Origin: a virus
Taxonomy: Duplodnaviria > Heunggongvirae > Uroviricota > Caudoviricetes
Direction: 5' to 3' (one strand)
Virus record (IMG/VR): IMGVR_UViG_2671180283_000027
Length of the DNA stretch: 32,641 bases
In this document: positions 20,409 to 31,998 of the stretch, in pieces
Layout of the letters: the number at the start of each line of letters is the position of its first letter
Position numbering within the stretch: the stretch's first letter is position 1
The notes under the pieces: generated by a model
Seen by the model: the letters and a program-made list of their open reading frames with translations, nothing else
Told to the model about the DNA's origin: nothing
Database searches by the model: none
Made by a program: the position numbers and the translations under genes

Positions 20409-22181
20409 ATGACCATCACCACAGACACCACTCTTTTACACGACCCGCGTCGTCAGGCGGCGCTGCTGTACTGGCAGGGGTTTTCCGTGCCGCAGATTGC
20501 CGCCATGTTGCAGATGAAACGCCCGACGGTGCAGAGCTGGAAACAGCGCGACGGCTGGGACAGCGTTGCCCCCATCAGCCGTGTCGAAATGAGTCTGGAA
20601 GCGCGGCTGACCCAGCTCATCATCAAACCGCAGAAAACCGGCGGTGACTTCAAGGAAATTGACCTGCTGGGACGCCAGATTGAACGACTGGCACGGGTCA
20701 ACCGCTACAGTCAGACCGGCAACGAGGCAGACCTTAATCCGAACATCGCTAACCGCAACAAAGGCGGGCGGCGCAAACCGAAAAAGAATTTTTTCAGTGA
20801 CGAGGCCATCGAAAAGCTGGAGCAGATTTTCTTTGAGCAGTCTTTCGACTATCAGTTGCACTGGTATCGCGCCGGGCTTGAGCACCGCATCCGCGATATC
20901 CTGAAATCCCGCCAGATTGGCGCGACGTTTTATTTTTCCCGCGAGGCGCTGCTGCGCGCCCTGAAAACCGGTCATAACCAGATTTTTCTGTCGGCCAGTA
21001 AAACGCAGGCGTATGTGTTCCGCGAATACATCATCGCCTTTGCCCGGCTGGTTGACGTTGACCTGACCGGTGACCCGATTGTCCTGGGCAATAACAGCGC
21101 AAAACTGATTTTTCTCGGCACCAACTCCAACACCGCGCAGAGCCATAACGGCGACCTGTACGTCGACGAGATTTTCTGGATCCCGAATTTTCAGGTACTG
21201 CGTAAGGTGGCATCAGGTATGGCCTCACAGAGTCACCTGCGCTCGACCTATTTCTCCACCCCGTCCACGCTGGCGCACGACGCCTATCCGTTCTGGTCCG
21301 GTGAACTGTTTAACCGGGGACGCGCCAGCGCCGCCGAACGCGTGGAAATCGACGTCAGTCATAACGCCCTTGCCGGAGGTCTTCTCTGTGCGGACGGCCA
21401 GTGGCGGCAGATTGTCACCATTGAGGACGCCCTGAAAGGTGGCTGCACACTGTTCGACATTGAGCAGCTCAAACGTGAAAACAGCGCCGACGATTTTAAA
21501 AACCTGTTCATGTGTGAATTTGTTGACGACAAGGCGTCGGTGTTCCCGTTCGAGGAGCTGCAACGCTGCATGGTCGACACGCTGGAAGAATGGGAAGACT
21601 ATGCGCCGTTTGCCGCAAATCCGTTCGGCTCACGTCCGGTATGGATTGGTTACGACCCGTCACACCGTGGCGACAGCGCCGGATGCGTGGTGCTGGCACC
21701 GCCGGTGGTGGTCGGTGGCAAATTCAGAATACTTGAGCGTCACCAGTGGAAAGGCATGGACTTTGCCACTCAGGCGGAATCCATCCGCAAACTCACCGAA
21801 AAATACAACGTCGAATACATCGGTATTGATGCCACCGGCCTTGGTGTCGGCGTGTTCCAGCTCGTGCGCTCGTTCTATCCCGCCGCGCGCGATATCCGCT
21901 ACACGCCGGAAATGAAGACCGCAATGGTGCTCAAGGCAAAAGACGTTATCCGCCGTGGCTGTCTGGAATATGACGTCAGCGCCACCGACATCACCAGCTC
22001 GTTTATGGCTATCCGCAAGACCATGACCAGCAGCGGACGCAGCGCCACCTATGAGGCCAGCCGCAGCGAGGAAGCCAGCCACGCCGACCTCGCCTGGGCG
22101 ACCATGCACGCCCTGTTAAATGAGCCACTCACCGCCGGTATCAGCACCCCGCTGACATCCACCATTCTGGAGTTTTACTGA
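20409..22181 (+). CDS. P: Terminase large (ATPase) subunit gpP (590 aa)
   Basis: Start refined to ATG at 20409 with a GAGG ribosome-binding site; 590 aa as in P2 gpP. Confidence 0.9.
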   Translation: MTITTDTTLLHDPRRQAALLYWQGFSVPQIAAMLQMKRPTVQSWKQRDGWDSVAPISRVEMSLEARLTQLIIKPQKTGGDFKEIDLLGRQIERLARVNRYSQTGNEADLNPNIANRNKGGRRKPKKNFFSDEAIEKLEQIFFEQSFDYQLHWYRAGLEHRIRDILKSRQIGATFYFSREALLRALKTGHNQIFLSASKTQAYVFREYIIAFARLVDVDLTGDPIVLGNNSAKLIFLGTNSNTAQSHNGDLYVDEIFWIPNFQVLRKVASGMASQSHLRSTYFSTPSTLAHDAYPFWSGELFNRGRASAAERVEIDVSHNALAGGLLCADGQWRQIVTIEDALKGGCTLFDIEQLKRENSADDFKNLFMCEFVDDKASVFPFEELQRCMVDTLEEWEDYAPFAANPFGSRPVWIGYDPSHRGDSAGCVVLAPPVVVGGKFRILERHQWKGMDFATQAESIRKLTEKYNVEYIGIDATGLGVGVFQLVRSFYPAARDIRYTPEMKTAMVLKAKDVIRRGCLEYDVSATDITSSFMAIRKTMTSSGRSATYEASRSEEASHADLAWATMHALLNEPLTAGISTPLTSTILEFY

Positions 22182-23215
22182 TGAGCAAGAAAAAAGGGAA
22201 AACACCGCAACCTGCGGCAAAAAAAATGACCGCCAGCGCCCCGAAAATGGAGGCATTCACCTTTGGTGAACCGGTGCCGGTACTCGACCGCCGTGACATT
22301 CTGGATTACGTCGAGTGCATCAGTAACGGCAGATGGTATGAGCCACCGGTCAGCTTTACCGGTCTGGCAAAAAGCCTGCGTGCTGCCGTACATCACAGCT
22401 CACCGATTTACGTCAAACGTAATATTCTGGCTTCAACGTTTATTCCGCACCCGTGGCTTTCCCAGCAGGATTTCAGCCGCTTTGTGCTGGATTTTCTGGT
22501 GTTCGGTAATGCGTTTCTGGAAAAGCGTTACAGCACCACCGGTAAGGTCATCAGACTGGAAACCTCACCGGCAAAATATACCCGCCGTGGCGTGGAGGAG
22601 GATGTTTACTGGTGGGTGCCGTCCTTCAACGAGCCGACAGCCTTCGCGCCCGGCTCCGTGTTTCACCTGCTGGAGCCGGATATTAATCAGGAGCTGTACG
22701 GCCTGCCGGAATATCTCAGCGCCCTTAACTCTGCCTGGCTGAATGAGTCGGCCACGCTGTTCCGCCGCAAGTATTACGAAAACGGCGCACATGCCGGATA
22801 CATCATGTACGTCACTGATGCCGTGCAGGATCGCAACGATATCGAAATGCTTCGCGAAAACATGGTGAAGTCAAAAGGCCGCAACAACTTTAAAAACCTG
22901 TTTCTCTATGCCCCACAGGGGAAAGCCGACGGCATTAAAATTATCCCGCTCAGTGAAGTGGCAACGAAGGACGATTTTTTTAATATCAAAAAAGCCAGCG
23001 CCGCTGACCTGCTGGACGCGCACCGCATCCCCTTTCAGTTGATGGGCGGCAAGCCGGAGAACGTCGGGTCGCTGGGCGATATTGAGAAAGTGGCAAAGGT
23101 CTTTGTCCGCAATGAACTTATCCCGTTACAGGACAGGATCCGCGAGATAAACGGCTGGCTCGGCCAGGAGGTCATCCGCTTTAAAAACTACTCACTGGAC
23201 ACTGACAACGGCTGA
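22181..23215 (+). CDS. Q: Portal protein gpQ (344 aa)
   Basis: 344 aa as in P2 gpQ; start overlaps the P stop. Confidence 0.9.
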   Translation: MSKKKGKTPQPAAKKMTASAPKMEAFTFGEPVPVLDRRDILDYVECISNGRWYEPPVSFTGLAKSLRAAVHHSSPIYVKRNILASTFIPHPWLSQQDFSRFVLDFLVFGNAFLEKRYSTTGKVIRLETSPAKYTRRGVEEDVYWWVPSFNEPTAFAPGSVFHLLEPDINQELYGLPEYLSALNSAWLNESATLFRRKYYENGAHAGYIMYVTDAVQDRNDIEMLRENMVKSKGRNNFKNLFLYAPQGKADGIKIIPLSEVATKDDFFNIKKASAADLLDAHRIPFQLMGGKPENVGSLGDIEKVAKVFVRNELIPLQDRIREINGWLGQEVIRFKNYSLDTDNG

Positions 23216-23533: not shown

Positions 23534-25885
23534 TTAAAGTTCTGTATATATTAGGCGTAGCATATCCTGCGCATAACTTTTCATATCTTCATCAGTCCAT
23601 TCACGGATAACGTGCATAGGCTCATTGAGTGCAGTTCTAAACCCATGAATTCTTCTGGCCGTCTCCTCTTCCAAAATACCATCTTCAGCCAGTCGATTAA
23701 TACACACAGAAAAATCCGTTCTATCATTTAAGTTGCAGTCTGTCAGTTGTTTGCGATAACGAGAACGGAATTCTGATTCAAGATATGGCCTTAAAGATAG
23801 TATTATTGTCTTATCAGTATCCACACCATTTATAAAATCAACAATCCTCTCATAGGATCTCTCATGGTCTGAAGCTATTAATTGCTCTACCTTCAGCGGT
23901 TCAAAATTAGAACCGTCTTGACCTTGTTTGATCTGAAGAATTCTATCCAAATTAAATTTTTGAGATGTCTTTGCTGCCATTCCTTTATAGTGTGTAGTAA
24001 TAAACATCTGTTTTACATAAGGCTGTAATTCATACAACTTCTGCAAAATACAAGATATTCTTTCCTCATCAAAACTTGTTACAGGATCATCCATAATAAG
24101 AATAGCTTTTGATTTCTCATCATTAGGTAACAAGTAAATTTTAGAAAGAAAGATGCACAAAGCCAAAGCTCGGCGATCTGACTCACTAAACAAACAATTA
24201 AGTTTGTTTTTTCCAACTGACTTCCCATTAAATGAAACGTCAAGTTCATAAACAATTTTTGTACCCTGCCTGTTTATTTTTTTATTTATAGAAAATTTAC
24301 TAGATCCAACAGAACAGAACAGAGAATTAATGTGCTCAAAATATTTGTTTAAAAATTGCTCCTGGCATTCCTCTAATGTTTTCTTCTTCTCATTATAGTT
24401 TTTTTCCCTAATATCTATTTCTTTTTTCAATTCAAGATATTCTCGACAATCTGGCTCAAGCAATAATCTTTTTTTATTAGATTCCCACTGCCCAAGATCT
24501 TTTTGATAGATTCCCAGTAATACATCTAATTTGGTGGAATTGATACTTTCTTTATACTTCACCAACTCATCATTGAGCTGATTAATAATGCTATTGTATG
24601 ATTCCAATTTGCCATGAATTTCATGCTCAAATTGTAGAAGAGCCGAAAAATCAAACCCCTTCATTTCGTTGTATACAGCTAATTCTTTCTCATCATATAT
24701 ACACTCCAGTGATTGCTGAGCCTTAAGTAGATCTTGGTTAAATGTCAATATATCATTTCTTACTTGATTATAAATAGCACAACATGACTCAAACCTTCCA
24801 TTATTACTTAATTCATTTTTTATCTCATTCTCTAAATACTGTGACAAAACATCAATGTTTTTGCTATGTACATCATCAATTACATTTAATGAGATAAATG
24901 AAAAATCAAGCCGCCTTATTTCTTTTAATTCTTTTTTTGTACTTTCAATAAAGCGCATAAATGACTCATCAAATGAATCCTTATAAGCACTAATCAGCTC
25001 TTTTGATTCTCCTGATATACTCTGACCGCAAAATGGACATATTTCTGTGGCCATACCAAGCCCATTTGAGATCCATCCATTAAAATGATCGTGAGCCTTT
25101 ATTCTCTCTTTATGTCGCTCTAATATAGAAAGTGCATCGTCATGAATTGTAGCCATTCCAGAAGAAAGACATTTATTAACCCTAATTGAAATATCTTTCA
25201 ACTTTGGTGTACAGTTAATTAAATTAAACAACGGCCTTGCTTTAATATATTTGACGGCTGTTTTCTTCTTTTCAACTTCTTGTATTGACTTAATAAGTTC
25301 ATTTATTTTTGAGTCAACGCAATCATAATCTGTTATGACAGGCTCACTATTAGCATACTCATCAACGTTATCAATTTGGTGTGATTGAATTAAATCTTTT
25401 TTACTTCTTAACGAACCTCTTAAACTTCTTAATTCTGCATTCTCCTTTTCCAGAGCTTCAAAAGCAGCAACATTGTCTTCACCCAAAATAAATGCAGTAA
25501 CACATTCAGAGTTTTCTCGATTAGATACTGTACCTGCCATTACATTTCTATGAACAAAACTCTGATCAAAGATATATAATTTAGAATCTGGTGGTGGTAA
25601 TCCTGACCATTTATCTACATAAAATGAAACAACTCTATTTGAACTCCCCTCTGTGAATTGTAAATCAATCTTTGGAGTTACTTCACCATCTCCCTCCAGA
25701 ATAGTCTTTCTGTTAACAACCAATTCAGGAGTATTCGTTGATAAAGAATAAAAGATGTCACAAAGAGTACTTTTACCATGTCTATTTTCACCGTAGATAA
25801 CATTCATGTTATTAAACTCATAAGAGCTGGAGCGAGCTTTAATATAGTTACCTACGCCCTCTATTAATTTAATCCTCTTTAACAT
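23534..25885 (-). CDS. Cargo: Rad50/SMC-like ABC ATPase (783 aa) with a CxxC-containing coiled-coil insert and a C-terminal putative nuclease domain; candidate RloC/PrrC-like anti-phage protein
   Basis: ATG with AAGGA ribosome-binding site; Walker A GENRHGKST (~32-40), Q-loop candidate (~Q108), coiled-coil region ~130-560 with CPFC at ~283-286, signature-like LFSESDRRALAL (~565-576), Walker B ILIMDD (~595-600), D-loop SFD, H-loop THY (~631-633), then a ~140-aa C-terminal domain with RPYLE (R699/E703) and downstream His; strongly AT-rich compared with the rest of the prophage. Confidence 0.7.
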   Translation of the reverse strand: MLKRIKLIEGVGNYIKARSSSYEFNNMNVIYGENRHGKSTLCDIFYSLSTNTPELVVNRKTILEGDGEVTPKIDLQFTEGSSNRVVSFYVDKWSGLPPPDSKLYIFDQSFVHRNVMAGTVSNRENSECVTAFILGEDNVAAFEALEKENAELRSLRGSLRSKKDLIQSHQIDNVDEYANSEPVITDYDCVDSKINELIKSIQEVEKKKTAVKYIKARPLFNLINCTPKLKDISIRVNKCLSSGMATIHDDALSILERHKERIKAHDHFNGWISNGLGMATEICPFCGQSISGESKELISAYKDSFDESFMRFIESTKKELKEIRRLDFSFISLNVIDDVHSKNIDVLSQYLENEIKNELSNNGRFESCCAIYNQVRNDILTFNQDLLKAQQSLECIYDEKELAVYNEMKGFDFSALLQFEHEIHGKLESYNSIINQLNDELVKYKESINSTKLDVLLGIYQKDLGQWESNKKRLLLEPDCREYLELKKEIDIREKNYNEKKKTLEECQEQFLNKYFEHINSLFCSVGSSKFSINKKINRQGTKIVYELDVSFNGKSVGKNKLNCLFSESDRRALALCIFLSKIYLLPNDEKSKAILIMDDPVTSFDEERISCILQKLYELQPYVKQMFITTHYKGMAAKTSQKFNLDRILQIKQGQDGSNFEPLKVEQLIASDHERSYERIVDFINGVDTDKTIILSLRPYLESEFRSRYRKQLTDCNLNDRTDFSVCINRLAEDGILEEETARRIHGFRTALNEPMHVIREWTDEDMKSYAQDMLRLIYTEL

Positions 25886-26151: not shown

Positions 26152-28419
26152 TCACCTAAAACCTATCCACTCATCAGCGACCGGATACGTGAATTGTTTC
26201 CCGTCATAATTTACAGTCGCGCCACGCGCCAGCGCCTCAAGCTCCCATCGCTGCGGCCTGATACCGTTCTGAGCAAGGTCAACGCGGATACGGGTGATTT
26301 GCATTCTTTCCGACCGGGTCAGTCTGGCCGATGGTGCAATTTCATGTGGTTTTAACGGGCTTCCGTTTCTTTGCTGACGGTTTGGTCTTCTCAGTCCGTG
26401 TTTTAATGCGCTTCTGAGCGCCCTCACAACCTCCGGGTCATTCCATTCGATAACACCGTCATCAACCAGATTAAGCACTGCTGCGGCGTGCTCAGAAGGT
26501 GTGGGAGCCGGTAACGAAGTATCACCACCGTTGAGCTTTCCACAGTTATTGACAGGACTCCGAGGCGCGGCGATGCCGCTTTTTAAAGTCAAAGGCTCAA
26601 CGACCGGCACTTTCGGCACAATGCGCCAGTCCGTGGTTCTGGTGATATGAATATGACGCGCGCCGAGATGCGGCGCGTAAATGCCGACCACTCTCTCGAC
26701 TTCTTCCTCGTACTCGTTAACGTCATCCGACGGGCTACGGGCGACCCTGACAGTCTGACAATCGCGCGGGACATTTGCCCCGCCCTGCGCGCTGATATAC
26801 AGCGCAAAATCGCCACTGTCTGCGGCGGCGCGTGCAGCCTCCACGCGTTCGTCAAATTCATCAGCAATGCTGACGCCGCGAGGCAATTTACGTAGCTCAC
26901 GGTAAGCTCCCATTGTCGGCAGGCCAACCGTTTTAAATTGCGGAATGCGCCACGTTGACGCCCATGCGGTAACAGCCGCCGCAGTATCTTTCAGCGGTCT
27001 GCCGGTATCGTTATCGAGCTGACCATCCAGTGCATAGCCGTCGATATTTTTTGAAATGTATTTCGCGATATATCCCGCAGCACCGCCCCGGTTAAGGTGT
27101 TTTGCCTGAAAACGGTTTCGCGCGGCTCCTCTTTCGTCGCCATCCTCTTTGAGCGCATAGCGACGCATGATTTCGATAATCTGGTTACGCTGGCGTGGAT
27201 TACAAAAAAGCATCATATGCCAGTGCGGCGTTCCGTCGTGGTGTGGTTCGACGACACGCAAACCGTAGACCTGTAAATCATTATCCTTGAATGCCGTGCG
27301 CATCAGGCTCCAGATACGGCAGAGATAACGCTGCGCATCCTTTGGATTAAATGCCTCATCGTTCCAGCCGTGATTAAGCTGGACGGTTTTATTTTCGCCT
27401 TTTCCGACCTGACGTGTCGGGTGATACTTTGACGGCGTGGTCAGCGTGATAAACATCCCCACATCACCCTCTGCGGCGGCGTAACGCTCAATACCGGCGA
27501 TGGTGTTCATCAGCTCCATCCGGCGAATTTCAGGATTAGAAATACTGCCCATCACCTTGCTGATAAGGTCGATGCGCTCGCCGGTTTCCCTGTTTTCGAG
27601 GTCACACGATTTAAGAAATTCCAGATTTGCCTGGCGGCGCGCACGCACATCACGAATGGCGTGTTTACTGGCATAAGGAGAACGGTCTTTATTGACCTCC
27701 CCGACAGCTATCAGTAACGCTTCATGCCAGCGCATACGCTGGCCTTTAAGCTGATGAGTCCACCACTCATCGTTAAACAGACGGGCAATGGCAGAATATG
27801 CCTGCCTCGTGGTCATCTGCCCTTTACGGTATTTTTTCCAGTAGAGAGGGGAAATATTGAAAGCACGTGCAGCGCCAGCAACATGACCATAGAGGTGAGC
27901 CTGCGCCTCATCCGTAAACAGCGATTCTTTTTCGCCATGCGCATCCACCCAGGCATCGCTGAGTTCCTCATACATCATGAAAAGCTGCGATGAGATACGG
28001 GCAGCAAACTTTTTCAGCTCCTTGTCATTCATTCCCGGCAGGCGCGCATAGTGGTCACGCTCTGCCAGAAACAGCAACGACGCGTCGGTGTTCATTTCAT
28101 GGCGCTGATTCACACGCTCAATGCGCGGCCATAAACGACGCTGAAAAGTGGATGTGAGGAAATAAAACCCGTGTACCGGGCTTTTATTGCGCCGGATGTA
28201 GTCATAGCGTGAAGTAAACAGCGAGCGCAAAAAGTAAGGCAGGCGGTTAATCGTGGATAAAACACCTTGCACCTGACGCATCTCGTCACGTGTAAGGGGT
28301 CTTTCGCGCCCGACGGCCTCGCGTGGCGCGTTCCATGCATAAGCACCGGTAAACGCCTTACCGGTGCCTGCAGCAAATGCTGAAGGAGGGACAAAACGCC
28401 CGGAGGCTTTAACGGCCAT
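26152..28419 (-). CDS. A: Replication initiation endonuclease gpA (rolling-circle, ~755 aa)
   Basis: Recognised as P2 gpA-like; contains the HWH motif region; start refined to the ATG at 28419 (MAVKASGRF...); the ORF track starts at an upstream TTG. Confidence 0.85.
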   Translation of the reverse strand: MAVKASGRFVPPSAFAAGTGKAFTGAYAWNAPREAVGRERPLTRDEMRQVQGVLSTINRLPYFLRSLFTSRYDYIRRNKSPVHGFYFLTSTFQRRLWPRIERVNQRHEMNTDASLLFLAERDHYARLPGMNDKELKKFAARISSQLFMMYEELSDAWVDAHGEKESLFTDEAQAHLYGHVAGAARAFNISPLYWKKYRKGQMTTRQAYSAIARLFNDEWWTHQLKGQRMRWHEALLIAVGEVNKDRSPYASKHAIRDVRARRQANLEFLKSCDLENRETGERIDLISKVMGSISNPEIRRMELMNTIAGIERYAAAEGDVGMFITLTTPSKYHPTRQVGKGENKTVQLNHGWNDEAFNPKDAQRYLCRIWSLMRTAFKDNDLQVYGLRVVEPHHDGTPHWHMMLFCNPRQRNQIIEIMRRYALKEDGDERGAARNRFQAKHLNRGGAAGYIAKYISKNIDGYALDGQLDNDTGRPLKDTAAAVTAWASTWRIPQFKTVGLPTMGAYRELRKLPRGVSIADEFDERVEAARAAADSGDFALYISAQGGANVPRDCQTVRVARSPSDDVNEYEEEVERVVGIYAPHLGARHIHITRTTDWRIVPKVPVVEPLTLKSGIAAPRSPVNNCGKLNGGDTSLPAPTPSEHAAAVLNLVDDGVIEWNDPEVVRALRSALKHGLRRPNRQQRNGSPLKPHEIAPSARLTRSERMQITRIRVDLAQNGIRPQRWELEALARGATVNYDGKQFTYPVADEWIGFR

Positions 28420-28684
28420 ATGAGCCAAAAGCCTCTGAACAACGCCTGCTGAGTTGCTCAACCTGCGCGTTTAAATCAGCAAAAGACTTTGCGCTTCCGG
28501 TCAGAATATCGTGATGCATCAGGCCGGAAACGAGCTGGCTTAATTTCGGATAATAACCAACCACCGCCAGCCATTCCTGACCGGCGTTTTTACCGCTTTC
28601 CGCTCTCTTTTTCTCGTGGAGAATAAACTGAAAGCTGTCACTGGTAACGACATAACGTTCGCCAATTTCAATACGAATACTCAT
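28409..28684 (-). CDS. Hypothetical early-operon protein (91 aa)
   Basis: ATG start overlaps the stop of the upstream gene; sits in the B-to-A small-ORF block typical of P2-like phages. Confidence 0.6.
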   Translation of the reverse strand: MSIRIEIGERYVVTSDSFQFILHEKKRAESGKNAGQEWLAVVGYYPKLSQLVSGLMHHDILTGSAKSFADLNAQVEQLSRRCSEAFGSYGR

Positions 28685-28905
28685 GCCGTTCTCCGGTAAT
28701 GTTTGTTTTTTGCTTCAAAGACTGACTGGCAGGAAACACAACGCGTGGCTGACGGATAAGCCGCACGACGGGCAGCAGGTATTGGCGCGTCACACTCTTC
28801 GCAAACCAGCGCAGAAGCACCGCAATGTTTTACCCTTGCCGCGTTAATCTGACGCTCCAGTAATTCAGCCTGTTGTTCCTGAATAAAATCTACGTTGTCC
28901 GGCAT
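28681..28905 (-). CDS. TraR/DksA-family C4 zinc-finger protein (74 aa)
   Basis: CEECDAPIPAARRAAYPSATRCVSCQ...KHY closely parallels the TraR zinc-finger motif as I recall it. Confidence 0.75.
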   Translation of the reverse strand: MPDNVDFIQEQQAELLERQINAARVKHCGASALVCEECDAPIPAARRAAYPSATRCVSCQSVFEAKNKHYRRTA

Positions 28906-29207
28906 TACCAGCTCCTTTTGTCGTTAAGTTTTTTAAATTCATCAGCGCAATAGCTGGCAATTTCTGTCGTTAATTTCGTCAGTTCATCCACGGAGGAGAT
29001 TTGCTTGTGAAATACAGCACGTTTAACAAGTAAATTGACCACATCAGACAGGAGATTTAATTCGTTCTGATAAATCGCGATAACAGACTCAGTTATTTCG
29101 CGTTTTTCTTTATCAAGACCAAGTTGAATAAGAGATAGATCGCCATTTTTCATAACGGTGATTTTTAAGGCGTTATTCAGTAATACAACTGAACGAGAAC
29201 AGGACAT
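28905..29207 (-). CDS. AT-rich hypothetical protein (~100 aa)
   Basis: ATG at 29207 overlaps the upstream stop (TGATG); markedly lower G+C than neighbouring early genes; no recognisable motif. Confidence 0.55.
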   Translation of the reverse strand: MSCSRSVVLLNNALKITVMKNGDLSLIQLGLDKEKREITESVIAIYQNELNLLSDVVNLLVKRAVFHKQISSVDELTKLTTEIASYCADEFKKLNDKRSW

Positions 29208-29431
29208 CAAAGCACCTCCCCGCGAGACAATCCGATATTGTGAAATTTTTCCGACTCCTGACTGAGCAGCTCGACTATCTCTACGCGGGATAACTCCGCC
29301 TTTGTGATGTGGCGAATCATGGCGTCAAGATGAGAAGAAAAGCGCGTTGCTGCGTCGGCCTGTGCTTCGGTTCTGGCCTGTTGCAGCAGTAATGCGTATT
29401 TACCGCACTGATTTTCAGAAACTGTATGCAT
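29207..29431 (-). CDS. Hypothetical early-operon protein (74 aa)
   Basis: Start refined to ATG at 29431 with a GGAG ribosome-binding site (the ORF track starts at an upstream TTG); translationally coupled to the next gene. Confidence 0.55.
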
Positions 29432-29494
29432 GACTTTCTCCAGGCAAAAAGAAGCCCCGCACAATTAAGTGCGTTAAAAACTCTGGTTAATTAC

Positions 29495-29995
29495 TTAATG
29501 CAGATATTGCTCTGGTTTTACCGACGTCAGAATTGTCGGTGCATACTCAAACAGGCTGAATAATTCACGTAATGCACGGAATAAGGCATCACGCCAGTAA
29601 CATGATTCTTCATTAATTCGCCAGTATGGCTGGTTGAATTCTTTTTCAGTCAATCCGGCATGCATAAATAAAGTACGGCGCTGACTGACAGTTAAAAAGC
29701 TAATATATGCATACTCACTTGCACCGACCTGACGGCGTTTTGAGAATGCCCCACGCAGTTCATCAATTGCACAAACCAGCCGTTCACGTTCGACGTCGTT
29801 CATTTCTTCAAAACGCATCGTTGCGTGACGCTGTTTTAACTGCGCATGGAAGCAAACCGTTAGCCGTTCGCGTTCCATCATCTGATTATAATAATCGCAT
29901 GTCTCCTGCCAGCGAGGGACGGCCAGATGCTTACCAATTATCCGGCGCATAGCTGCTGGCTGTTTTTCAACGAGATTGAGCGTCATCACTGTCAT
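29495..29995 (-). CDS. B: Replication protein gpB (166 aa)
   Basis: 166 aa as in P2 gpB; position between cox and A in the early operon. Confidence 0.75.
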   Translation of the reverse strand: MTVMTLNLVEKQPAAMRRIIGKHLAVPRWQETCDYYNQMMERERLTVCFHAQLKQRHATMRFEEMNDVERERLVCAIDELRGAFSKRRQVGASEYAYISFLTVSQRRTLFMHAGLTEKEFNQPYWRINEESCYWRDALFRALRELFSLFEYAPTILTSVKPEQYLH

Positions 29996-30162
29996 TTCCA
30001 GACCCTCCGGCTTTTCAGAAAGGTCAGAGCCTTTTTTAACGGACTCTGTTTTTTGGTGCGGATAATGATTCCCTTACGCCCCTTACCGTGGGTGATGGTA
30101 AAGTCAATCGCCCTGGGGCTTTCGTTACGCAATAACTGAGCAATACAACGAGGCTCATTCAT
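29992..30162 (-). CDS. Small basic hypothetical protein (56 aa)
   Basis: ATG at 30162 preceded by a strong AAGGAG ribosome-binding site; stop overlaps the B start (ATGA); lysine/arginine-rich C-terminus. Confidence 0.55.
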   Translation of the reverse strand: MNEPRCIAQLLRNESPRAIDFTITHGKGRKGIIIRTKKQSPLKKALTFLKSRRVWK

Positions 30163-30172
30163 ACGGTTCTCC

Positions 30173-30448
30173 TTAACGTGGTTCACCGAGACCTAACCAC
30201 ATCAACCAGCCGTCACGAATCTCTTTAGGACGGCTTTCATAAGCCAGTTTTAGTCCGTTATTCCATGCCGGAAGGTATACCCAATATTCACCAGCACGCC
30301 CCGATACTGACTGAGGGTCAGTAATCTCAATAACTGGTAATTTCCCTTTCTCAATCATGCCCCTTACAGCTCTTGGAGTTTTACCAATGAGTTTTGCAAA
30401 CTCCTGATAAGGCACGGCATCAGTCACGCTTACAAGCTGTCTATTCAT
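30173..30448 (-). CDS. cox: Cox (excision directionality factor and repressor of Pc, 91 aa)
   Basis: 91 aa; first gene of the early operon, divergent from C, as in P2. Confidence 0.8.
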   Translation of the reverse strand: MNRQLVSVTDAVPYQEFAKLIGKTPRAVRGMIEKGKLPVIEITDPQSVSGRAGEYWVYLPAWNNGLKLAYESRPKEIRDGWLMWLGLGEPR

Positions 30449-30462
30449 CTGCTACGATTCTC

Positions 30463-30492
30463 CCTTAGTGCTTCTAATGGCTCCTAATGGCT
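30463..30492. promoter_or_regulatory. Period-10 tandem repeats in the cox-C switch region; candidate C-repressor operators
   Basis: CCTTAGTGCT / TCTAATGGCT / CCTAATGGCT in direct tandem; P2 C repressor is known to bind direct repeats. Confidence 0.4.
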
Positions 30493-30569
30493 AATTATTG
30501 CCTAAAAGGATAACTCCAGAAGCACAACATTTCACACTATCAGCAAGAAATTACGCAATCGGAGTAATT

Positions 30570-30869
30570 ATGTCAATAGACGTTTCGGAGAAGTTGAAGC
30601 TAATCCGTGAATCTGAAAGGTTAAACCGTAAAGAATTCAGTGAATTAACTGGTGTAGCCTACAGCTCACTTTCGAGCTATGAGAGCCGGTCAAAAAACGC
30701 TGGAGTTGAAGCCATAATGAAGGTCTTACAACATCCCAGATTTACTAAATATACTTTGTGGTTCATGACTGATCAGGTAGCTCCAGAAGCCGGGCAAATT
30801 GCGCCCGCTCTCGCACACTTTGGGCAAAACGAAACAACGTCGCCCCACTCCGGTCAAAAGACTGGTTAA
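30570..30869 (+). CDS. C: Immunity repressor C (99 aa)
   Basis: Start refined to ATG at 30570 with a GGAG ribosome-binding site; C-terminus ...FTKYTLWFMTDQVAPEAGQIAPALAHFGQNETTSPHSGQKTG recognised as P2 C-like. Confidence 0.85.
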   Translation: MSIDVSEKLKLIRESERLNRKEFSELTGVAYSSLSSYESRSKNAGVEAIMKVLQHPRFTKYTLWFMTDQVAPEAGQIAPALAHFGQNETTSPHSGQKTG

Positions 30870-30984: not shown

Positions 30985-31998
30985 ATGGCAATCAAAAAAC
31001 TCGATGATGGTCGATATGAAGTGGACATCCGCCCTACTGGACGTAACGGAAAACGCATCCGTAGGAAGTTTGATAAGAAAAGCGAAGCTGTCGCTTTCGA
31101 AAAATACACGTTGTACAACCACCACAATAAAGAATGGCTATCAAAACCAACAGACAAACGACGTCTGTCGGAACTGACACAGATCTGGTGGGATTTAAAG
31201 GGTAAACACGAAGAGCATGGGAAATCTAATCTTGGAAAAATTGAAATCTTCACAAAAATAACGAATGACCCATGCGCATTTCAAATCACGAAATCCCTTA
31301 TCAGCCAGTACTGCGCCACCCGAAGAAGTCAGGGTATTAAACCTTCGAGTATCAATCGTGATTTAACATGTATTAGCGGCATGTTTACAGCCCTGATTGA
31401 AGCGGAGTTATTCTTTGGTGAGCACCCTATCAGAGGGACAAAGAGGCTTAAGGAGGAAAAACCAGAAACAGGCTATCTCACACAGGAAGAAATTGCCTTA
31501 CTGCTTGCAGCACTTGACGGCGACAATAAAAAGATTGCGATTCTTTGCCTGAGTACAGGAGCACGTTGGGGAGAAGCAGCTCGTTTGAAAGCAGAAAATA
31601 TCATCCATAACCGCGTCACGTTTGTTAAAACGAAAACAAACAAACCACGCACCGTCCCGATCTCAGAGGCTGTTGCCAAAATGATCGCGGATAACAAACG
31701 AGGTTTTTTATTCCCTGATGCTGATTACCCTCGCTTCAGACGAACAATGAAAGCAATAAAACCGGATTTGCCAACGGGGCAAGCCACACATGCACTAAGG
31801 CACAGCTTTGCCACTCATTTCATGATTAATGGAGGAAGTATTATCACGCTACAACGGATACTAGGTCACACGCGGATTGAGCAAACTATGGTTTACGCTC
31901 ATTTTGCGCCAGAGTACCTTCAGGACGCCATTTCTCTTAATCCGCTAAGAGGTGGTACTGAGGCCGAGAGTGTCCACACAGTGTCCACAGTAGAGTAA
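30985..31998 (+). CDS. int: Tyrosine integrase (P2 Int-like, 337 aa)
   Basis: 337 aa as in P2 Int; C-terminal R...HxxR...Y catalytic region (HALRHSFATHF ... TMVYAHF); next to attR. Confidence 0.9.
   Translation: MAIKKLDDGRYEVDIRPTGRNGKRIRRKFDKKSEAVAFEKYTLYNHHNKEWLSKPTDKRRLSELTQIWWDLKGKHEEHGKSNLGKIEIFTKITNDPCAFQITKSLISQYCATRRSQGIKPSSINRDLTCISGMFTALIEAELFFGEHPIRGTKRLKEEKPETGYLTQEEIALLLAALDGDNKKIAILCLSTGARWGEAARLKAENIIHNRVTFVKTKTNKPRTVPISEAVAKMIADNKRGFLFPDADYPRFRRTMKAIKPDLPTGQATHALRHSFATHFMINGGSIITLQRILGHTRIEQTMVYAHFAPEYLQDAISLNPLRGGTEAESVHTVSTVE

Follow-up and report, generated by a model that had tools for sequence, protein, structure and literature searches.

An AT-rich gene in the early operon of a P2-type prophage, identified as the orthologue of P2 orf81 and a long-standing resident of the replication module

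The early (Pe) replication operon of P2-type phages has the gene order cox-orf78-B-orf80-orf81-orf82-orf83-A. Alongside genes for replication and recombination, the early operons of temperate phages carry unrelated accessory genes. Morons, a class of accessory genes of phages, vary between close relatives and usually come with expression signals of their own. The gene considered here, orf81, is already known: it is annotated in the P2 GenBank record (AF063097, AAD03303.1) and filed in Pfam as DUF5405. A search of the literature on DUF5405, DUF2732 and orf80 to orf83 found no functional study, and one comparative paper lists P2 Orf81 as 'unknown'.

The window, that is the whole 32,641-nucleotide stretch analysed, is the right arm of a P2-type prophage, with the early operon on the minus strand and the immunity and integration genes on the plus strand. 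The open reading frame at 28905-29207 (minus strand; 100 aa, 11.3 kDa, pI 7.8) was rightly identified in the initial annotation as an accessory gene in the early operon of a P2-like phage; the accompanying statement that it has no recognisable motif was wrong. It matches Pfam PF17399 (DUF5405) with 118 bits against a cut-off of 21.6 (E 2.4e-34), residues 10-95 covering model positions 1-88 of 88, and phrog_265 at E 1.7e-54 over positions 1-99 of 99. P2 Orf81 is 95% identical to it in amino acid sequence and has the same neighbours. On this identity, the full-length profile match and the position between orf80 and orf82, within the stretch from B to A, the reading frame is almost certainly the orthologue of P2 orf81 and a member of DUF5405. 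NCBIfam holds no family for orf81, orf80, orf83, B or A.

Public names for the gene are inconsistent. A comparison of RefSeq phage records (NC_070907, NC_070902, NC_070905, NC_070903 and NC_070908 against NC_001895, NC_005056 and others) found 'minor tail protein' in some and 'replication initiation protein' in others, while bacterial genomes name it 'DUF5405 family protein'. Both functional names appear unsupported. That 'minor tail protein' has been given to the same gene makes the family names unreliable, and no experimental basis for the PHROGs/RefSeq label 'replication initiation protein' was found in the literature. Nor did the searches lend support to the latter name: orf81 has no similarity to characterised initiators or helicase loaders in Pfam, NCBIfam or the PDB, and a Dickeya P2-like module without DUF5405, described below, argues against a requirement; what label and gene have in common is that orf81 is coded inside the replication module.

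A strong Shine-Dalgarno sequence, a dN/dS of 0.23 over 11 phages and a confident AF2 model (pLDDT 86) establish orf81 as a real protein-coding gene. Its 100 codons run from an ATG at 29207-29205 to a TAA at 28907-28905 on the minus strand. The list of open reading frames opens it one codon earlier, at a TTG at 29210, but the ATG agrees with the P2 annotation and is the start served by the Shine-Dalgarno sequence, GGGGAGGTG (29213-29221, minus strand), which was read from the upstream sequence within the 3' end of orf80, at a spacing of 5 nt. Such a position is consistent with coupled translation. Overlapping stop and start codons on both sides had been noted earlier and are confirmed, one base being shared with each neighbour: upstream, in TGATG, the orf80 stop TGA (29209-29207) gives its A to the orf81 ATG, and downstream, in TAATG, the final A of the orf81 TAA is the first base of the orf82 ATG at 28905. 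Translation of orf81 would proceed by coupling to orf80 and orf82. Consensus scans found no promoter-like site in or beside orf81 (28300-30600 holds one, where chance alone would give 3.1) and no terminator-like site on its coding strand, the single hairpin within the reading frame lying on the opposite strand.

The surrounding anatomy bears out the earlier placement of the gene inside the early replication operon, which is of the P2 Pe type with orf81 coupled to both neighbours. On the plus strand lie the immunity gene for the C repressor (30498-30869) and int (30985-31998). The minus-strand operon begins with cox (30173-30448) and orf78 (29992-30186), followed by gene B (29495-29995), whose 166-aa product is P2 replication protein B by phrog_235 and the P2 annotation (PF26815, Phage_RepB, is found on its homologues), and by orf80 (29207-29431; 74 aa from the P2-equivalent ATG), a DUF2732 gene by PF10809 (E 5.7e-10), phrog_128 and the P2 annotation, the open frame of which reaches further, to a TTG at 29464. 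Beyond orf81 come orf82 (28681-28905), encoding a 74-aa TraR/DksA-type C4 zinc finger protein (PF01258, E 3e-11; TIGR02419, 78.3 bits against a cut-off of 59.7), then orf83 (28409-28684, 91 aa), which overlaps the start of gene A. Gene A (26152-28419), the rolling-circle replication endonuclease by the P2 annotation, ends the operon, and its product has 97-99% amino acid identity to gpA of P2-group phages. Between B and orf80 the consensus scan marks a terminator-like hairpin with a T-rich tail (29458-29473, minus strand; CGCACTTAATTGTGCG, then GGGCTTCTTT), at the place equivalent to a putative rho-independent terminator in the P2 record. Judging from this anatomy, orf81 is probably transcribed from Pe, and given the hairpin between B and orf80, orf80 to orf83 and A would be made from Pe transcripts that read through a leaky terminator. 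A full-length CyaR/RyeE small RNA at 1445-1530 on the plus strand (Rfam RF00112, 100.7 bits) suggests that the window starts, on its left, in host chromosome and that the prophage adjoins cyaR.

The operon contains a second, divergent DUF5405 gene, orf83 (PF17399, E 6.7e-13; phrog_154), and the two are distant paralogues. BLASTP gives no alignment between them; hhalign aligns orf83 with the orf81 profile end to end (82% probability, E 1.1e-5, 82 columns). The AF2 models share a topology of four strands followed by two helices, with strands 7-10, 14-18, 24-32 and 37-46 and helices 49-66 and 73-99 in Orf81, and strands 4-7, 11-15, 20-27 and 37-45 and helices 48-62 and 68-87 in Orf83 (pLDDT 77). 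Furthermore, a Pectobacterium protein in the orf81 position matches both phrog_265 and phrog_154. Paralogy follows from these three observations together with the scores of both genes above the DUF5405 threshold. In a PDB profile search the orf81 alignment returned nothing at E <= 10 and the orf83 alignment noise only, and the best Foldseek match of the orf81 model in the PDB has an E of 0.14. Against BFVD, Foldseek returns other DUF5405 or uncharacterised phage proteins of about 90-100 aa (TM 0.55-0.77), Lactobacillus phage proteins among them.

A tblastn search with orf81 retrieves 75 phage records, every one from the P2 group and all also carrying B. Records with B at at least 95% identity and at least 80% coverage likewise number 75, and those with A at at least 90% identity number 77, at least one of the extra ones being a fragment. 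Among phage records the gene was not seen in P2 relatives without B, such as the 186-like Erwinia phage EtG, where the order is DUF2732 - TraR - exonuclease - DUF5405 - A and no orf81-type gene stands between the DUF2732 and TraR genes. The B-to-orf83 block is present in 1675 of 5426 complete E. coli genomes (about 31%), at least 80% of it in 1597 of the 1675, nearly all at 95-99% identity. Divergent orf81-type proteins (25-57% identity) occur in Citrobacter, Scandinavium, Buttiauxella, Edaphovirga and Serratia; the Edaphovirga prophage is decayed, flanked by transposases and without orf82, orf83 and the 5' end of A, so it is uninformative on gene order. In Serratia, Pectobacterium and Yersinia ruckeri prophages, some with a 186-type immunity region, an orf81-type gene of about 31-37% identity occupies the same slot, the contigs reading RepB - DUF2732 - DUF5405 (orf81-type) - TraR - (orf83 position) - GPA, and overlaps of 1 nt or little more with the neighbours recur. 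A Dickeya oryzae prophage (L021, 4001-7404) has RepB, DUF2732, TraR and GPA and neither DUF5405 gene. Provided that this prophage is functional, orf81 and orf83 are dispensable, and the module does seem able to do without orf81. Orf81-type genes were seen only in modules with B, but as Dickeya has B without orf81, we reject the idea that the two genes strictly depend on each other.

We are therefore close to certain that orf81 has long belonged to the B-type P2 replication module and has been inherited vertically with it. The comparison of homology and of presence or absence across P2-like phages that had been proposed at the outset gives DUF5405/P2 Orf81 and 75 P2-group records. Homology to a conserved replication accessory protein in all relatives had been named as evidence that would count against a lateral acquisition; of this, conservation in relatives is largely borne out, a replication role is not.

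Sequence variation in orf81 is unevenly spread. Across 11 P2-group genomes, picked to take in divergent orf81 alleles, dN/dS is 0.23 for orf81, 0.16 for orf80, 0.15 for orf83, 0.125 for orf82, 0.085 for the 5' part of A and 0.02 for B: orf81 is under purifying selection, yet the weakest of the operon. Among 105 close homologues the first helix (residues 49-66) is nearly invariant (entropy 0.06), against 0.32 for the sheet and about 0.3 for the C-terminal end. In Yersinia phage vB_YpM_115 (L005, 1250-1495) and E. coli EC6563 (L003, 773-1018) an extra 81-aa gene (phrog_11056) stands between orf80 and orf81, both of which are shorter there, and the first 50 codons of vB_YpM_115 orf81 have 60% nucleotide identity to the window as against 94% for the rest. 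The change marks an intragenic recombination joint, the 5' half of this orf81 having been replaced, and the orf80/orf81 junction is thus an occasional point of recombination or insertion. The gap between orf83 and A is a second variable slot inside P2-like early operons; a PAPS-reductase-like (cysH-type) gene lies there in Peduovirus P2 OU784746 (L010, 2302-3297) and in a Serratia contig (L018, 4360-5367).

Orf81 is predicted to be small, soluble and non-catalytic and to fold as a four-stranded sheet plus a helical hairpin. The protein would bind a replication, recombination or nuclease partner of phage or host (B, A, DnaB, Rep or an exonuclease) and so tune P2 rolling-circle replication, helpfully yet dispensably, its nearly invariant first helix forming the core and its more variable sheet a specificity surface. 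This picture, in which a dispensable protein modulates a component of replication, recombination or nuclease action by binding and not by catalysis, is put forward only tentatively; it is suggested by the neighbourhood of DUF5405 genes. These always lie between B and A in P2-type phages, adjoin a DnaQ-like exonuclease gene in Erwinia phage EtG and Pseudomonas phage UF_RH7, directly follow abc2 in HK446 and ES18, where erf precedes (with ssb too in ES18), lie downstream of exo/recT in phiEt88 and sit between a gp46-like nuclease gene and the clamp genes in T4-like MP1. The UF_RH7 case is unusual in form, the DUF5405-like region being the N-terminal part of a 179-aa protein (L027, 2501-3040) encoded directly upstream of the exonuclease gene. 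As an argument for a replication role this neighbourhood is weak, given the mixed content of temperate-phage early operons and the lambdoid copies, which lie in the classic non-essential 'ea' region. Nor would orf81 be a core replication factor, since a P2 mini-replicon is not known to need more than A and ori. The explanation as a whole, in which the reading frame is P2 orf81, an old resident of the module and a binding modulator, is the best available, and we hold it to be about evenly balanced between right and wrong.

The main rival to the binding-modulator model is an anti-defence or host-takeover factor, in which Orf81, made early, would inhibit a host immunity or housekeeping protein, for instance a nuclease-based defence, and the variable sheet would track its targets. 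The protein is small, early and without a catalytic motif; in the lambdoid phages its DUF5405 relatives directly follow the anti-RecBCD gene abc2; it can be dispensed with in some lineages (Dickeya); and its neighbour orf82 encodes a TraR-type protein, of a family that binds host RNA polymerase. Its dN/dS exceeds the 0.02-0.16 of the other operon genes, although it is still far under 1, and the variable sheet is accompanied by an allelic, mosaic 5' half in vB_YpM_115 and E. coli EC6563. Indeed the operon's highest dN/dS and this mosaic half suit an arms-race protein at least as well. However, no similarity to a characterised anti-defence protein was found, the sole BFVD row of this kind, a toxin/antitoxin-system inhibitor of Pectobacterium phage Q19, being insignificant (E 0.11, TM 0.31). 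Among defence proteins, PADLOC-DB holds no family matching orf81, orf80 or orf83 at E <= 0.01. The fixed slot and near-universal presence in B-type modules are also unlike the patchy spread typical of such genes, and we judge an anti-defence role possible but somewhat doubtful.

A broader proposal takes in Orf81 and Orf83 together with the related proteins of lambdoid, T4-like, N4-like and Casjens-type phages. DUF5405 proteins may form a hitherto unnoticed family of small phage proteins that inhibit or modulate host DNA nucleases or defences built on nucleases, as is suggested by the occurrence of their genes beside abc2, DnaQ-like and SbcCD-like genes and by the relaxed, mosaic evolution of orf81. 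Orf81 could then be a faster-evolving second copy whose variable sheet sets target specificity. We think this proposal rather unlikely.

It is less probable still that the TraR-like Orf82 forms a complex with the DUF5405 proteins encoded on either side of it, and that these help to reprogram the host RNA polymerase at an early stage of infection. In P2-type modules of several genera a DUF5405 gene does stand next to the TraR gene and is translationally coupled with it, and the EtG early operon keeps one of each. Yet the exonuclease gene lies between the two in EtG, no TraR gene adjoins the lambdoid, T4-like or N4-like DUF5405 genes, and Dickeya keeps TraR without any DUF5405. It is this separate occurrence in other phages that makes a partnership with Orf82 less likely than the binding-modulator model.

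The AT-richness that first drew attention to orf81 is genuine. Its GC content is 0.366 (0.455, 0.287 and 0.356 at the three codon positions), while orf80 has 0.504, orf82 0.511, orf83 0.471, B 0.457 and A 0.536, so that the initial annotation was right to call it AT-richer than its neighbours (36.6% GC, where the adjacent genes have 47-51% and the early operon about 50%), and the G+C difference is upheld on computation. Over 303-bp windows the early operon has a mean GC of 0.500 (sd 0.049), and its minimum window (0.363), about 2.7 sd under the mean, falls on orf81; just 7.3% of 303-bp windows in the whole 32.6-kb window are equally AT-rich. Low values at all three codon positions are what a recently acquired moron, its AT-richness marking a foreign gene in the operon, might be expected to show, and in atypical base composition orf81 does resemble one. 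The narrowness of the subfamily, with 20 representatives at E <= 0.001 among 1.84 billion proteins, and the failure to detect orf81 in 186/PSP3-type relatives point in the same direction.

The description of orf81 as laterally acquired is nonetheless unsupported. The gene is in every P2-group phage record found, 75 of 75, matching the 75 with B, where a moron would vary in presence among close relatives; it occupies the same slot across genera, down to the 31-37% identity of Serratia, Pectobacterium and Y. ruckeri; it is a paralogue of orf83 in the same operon; and it is coupled to both neighbours, the consensus scans showing none of the promoter or coding-strand terminator signals that morons usually bring. 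Low GC recurs with it, at 0.347-0.390 in 10 other P2-group phages, and in four of five lineages of the other genera the orf81-type gene is again the lowest of its module (0.37-0.41 against 0.43-0.57), Pectobacterium being the exception. Because the composition persists across such divergence, AT-richness is a trait that this gene lineage has long had, and no sign of recent import or scar of transfer; its simplest cause may be weak constraint combined with AT-biased mutation and a protein rich in K, N, I and L. The recent-moron reading is thus largely refuted, and we give it very little weight. The real AT-rich cargo gene of this prophage lies elsewhere. The 1-kb GC map has its lowest stretch at about 24-26 kb, in an island of 30-33% GC (about 23.5-26.1 kb) that contains the gene for a 783-aa AAA_13-type ATPase (23534-25885, minus strand), between gene A and a 344-aa reading frame at 22181-23215 that we take to be the portal gene; the spot is presumably the P2 tin/old cargo hotspot. 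The ATPase matches the PADLOC candidate PDC-S06 over its full length (E 6.5e-154) and LmuB weakly.

Least credible of all is the idea that the AT-rich DNA itself, the local GC minimum of the operon, is functional as a nucleoid-protein site, promoter or RNA and the reading frame incidental, given the purifying selection on the protein, its confident fold and its strong family match, and a cis-acting RNA or promoter in the stretch was rejected, there being no Rfam match in the region and no promoter-like site within the reading frame.

The finding is real but ordinary. Carriage by about 31% of complete E. coli genomes lends the gene modest importance, and its inconsistent public annotation is a further reason for modest interest; few gaps are left in the P2 early operon, and a defined function for the DUF5405 pair would close one of them. 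The case also illustrates how poorly a high AT content by itself indicates recent horizontal transfer, since in this gene it has been kept across genera.

Set against known systems, orf81 is like the phage morons and the P2 hotspot genes of the tin/old locus in being AT-rich relative to the backbone and apparently non-essential. Unlike them it is fixed, syntenic across genera and translationally coupled, and the hotspot cargo of this prophage is another gene, the one at 23534-25885. With P2 Orf83 and the wider DUF5405 family (phrog_154; ES18 gp45, Sf6 gp24-like, HK446 gp29, EtG gp42 and MP1 gp042) it has in common the family itself, the predicted topology of four strands and two helices, a conserved Cys in the last helix and an early-operon place near DNA replication or recombination genes. 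The two types differ in range, orf83-type genes being found in many phage groups (155 phage records) and orf81-type genes only in phage records of the P2 group (75) and in B-type prophage modules of other enterobacteria, and in composition, the GC content of orf83 being ordinary and that of orf81 low. The closest counterparts are P2 Orf81 and its orthologues in Wphi, L-413C, fiAA91-ss and other Peduovirus phages, which are alike in length, slot, overlaps and low GC; P2 Orf81 itself differs from the orf81 of the window by only a few substitutions.
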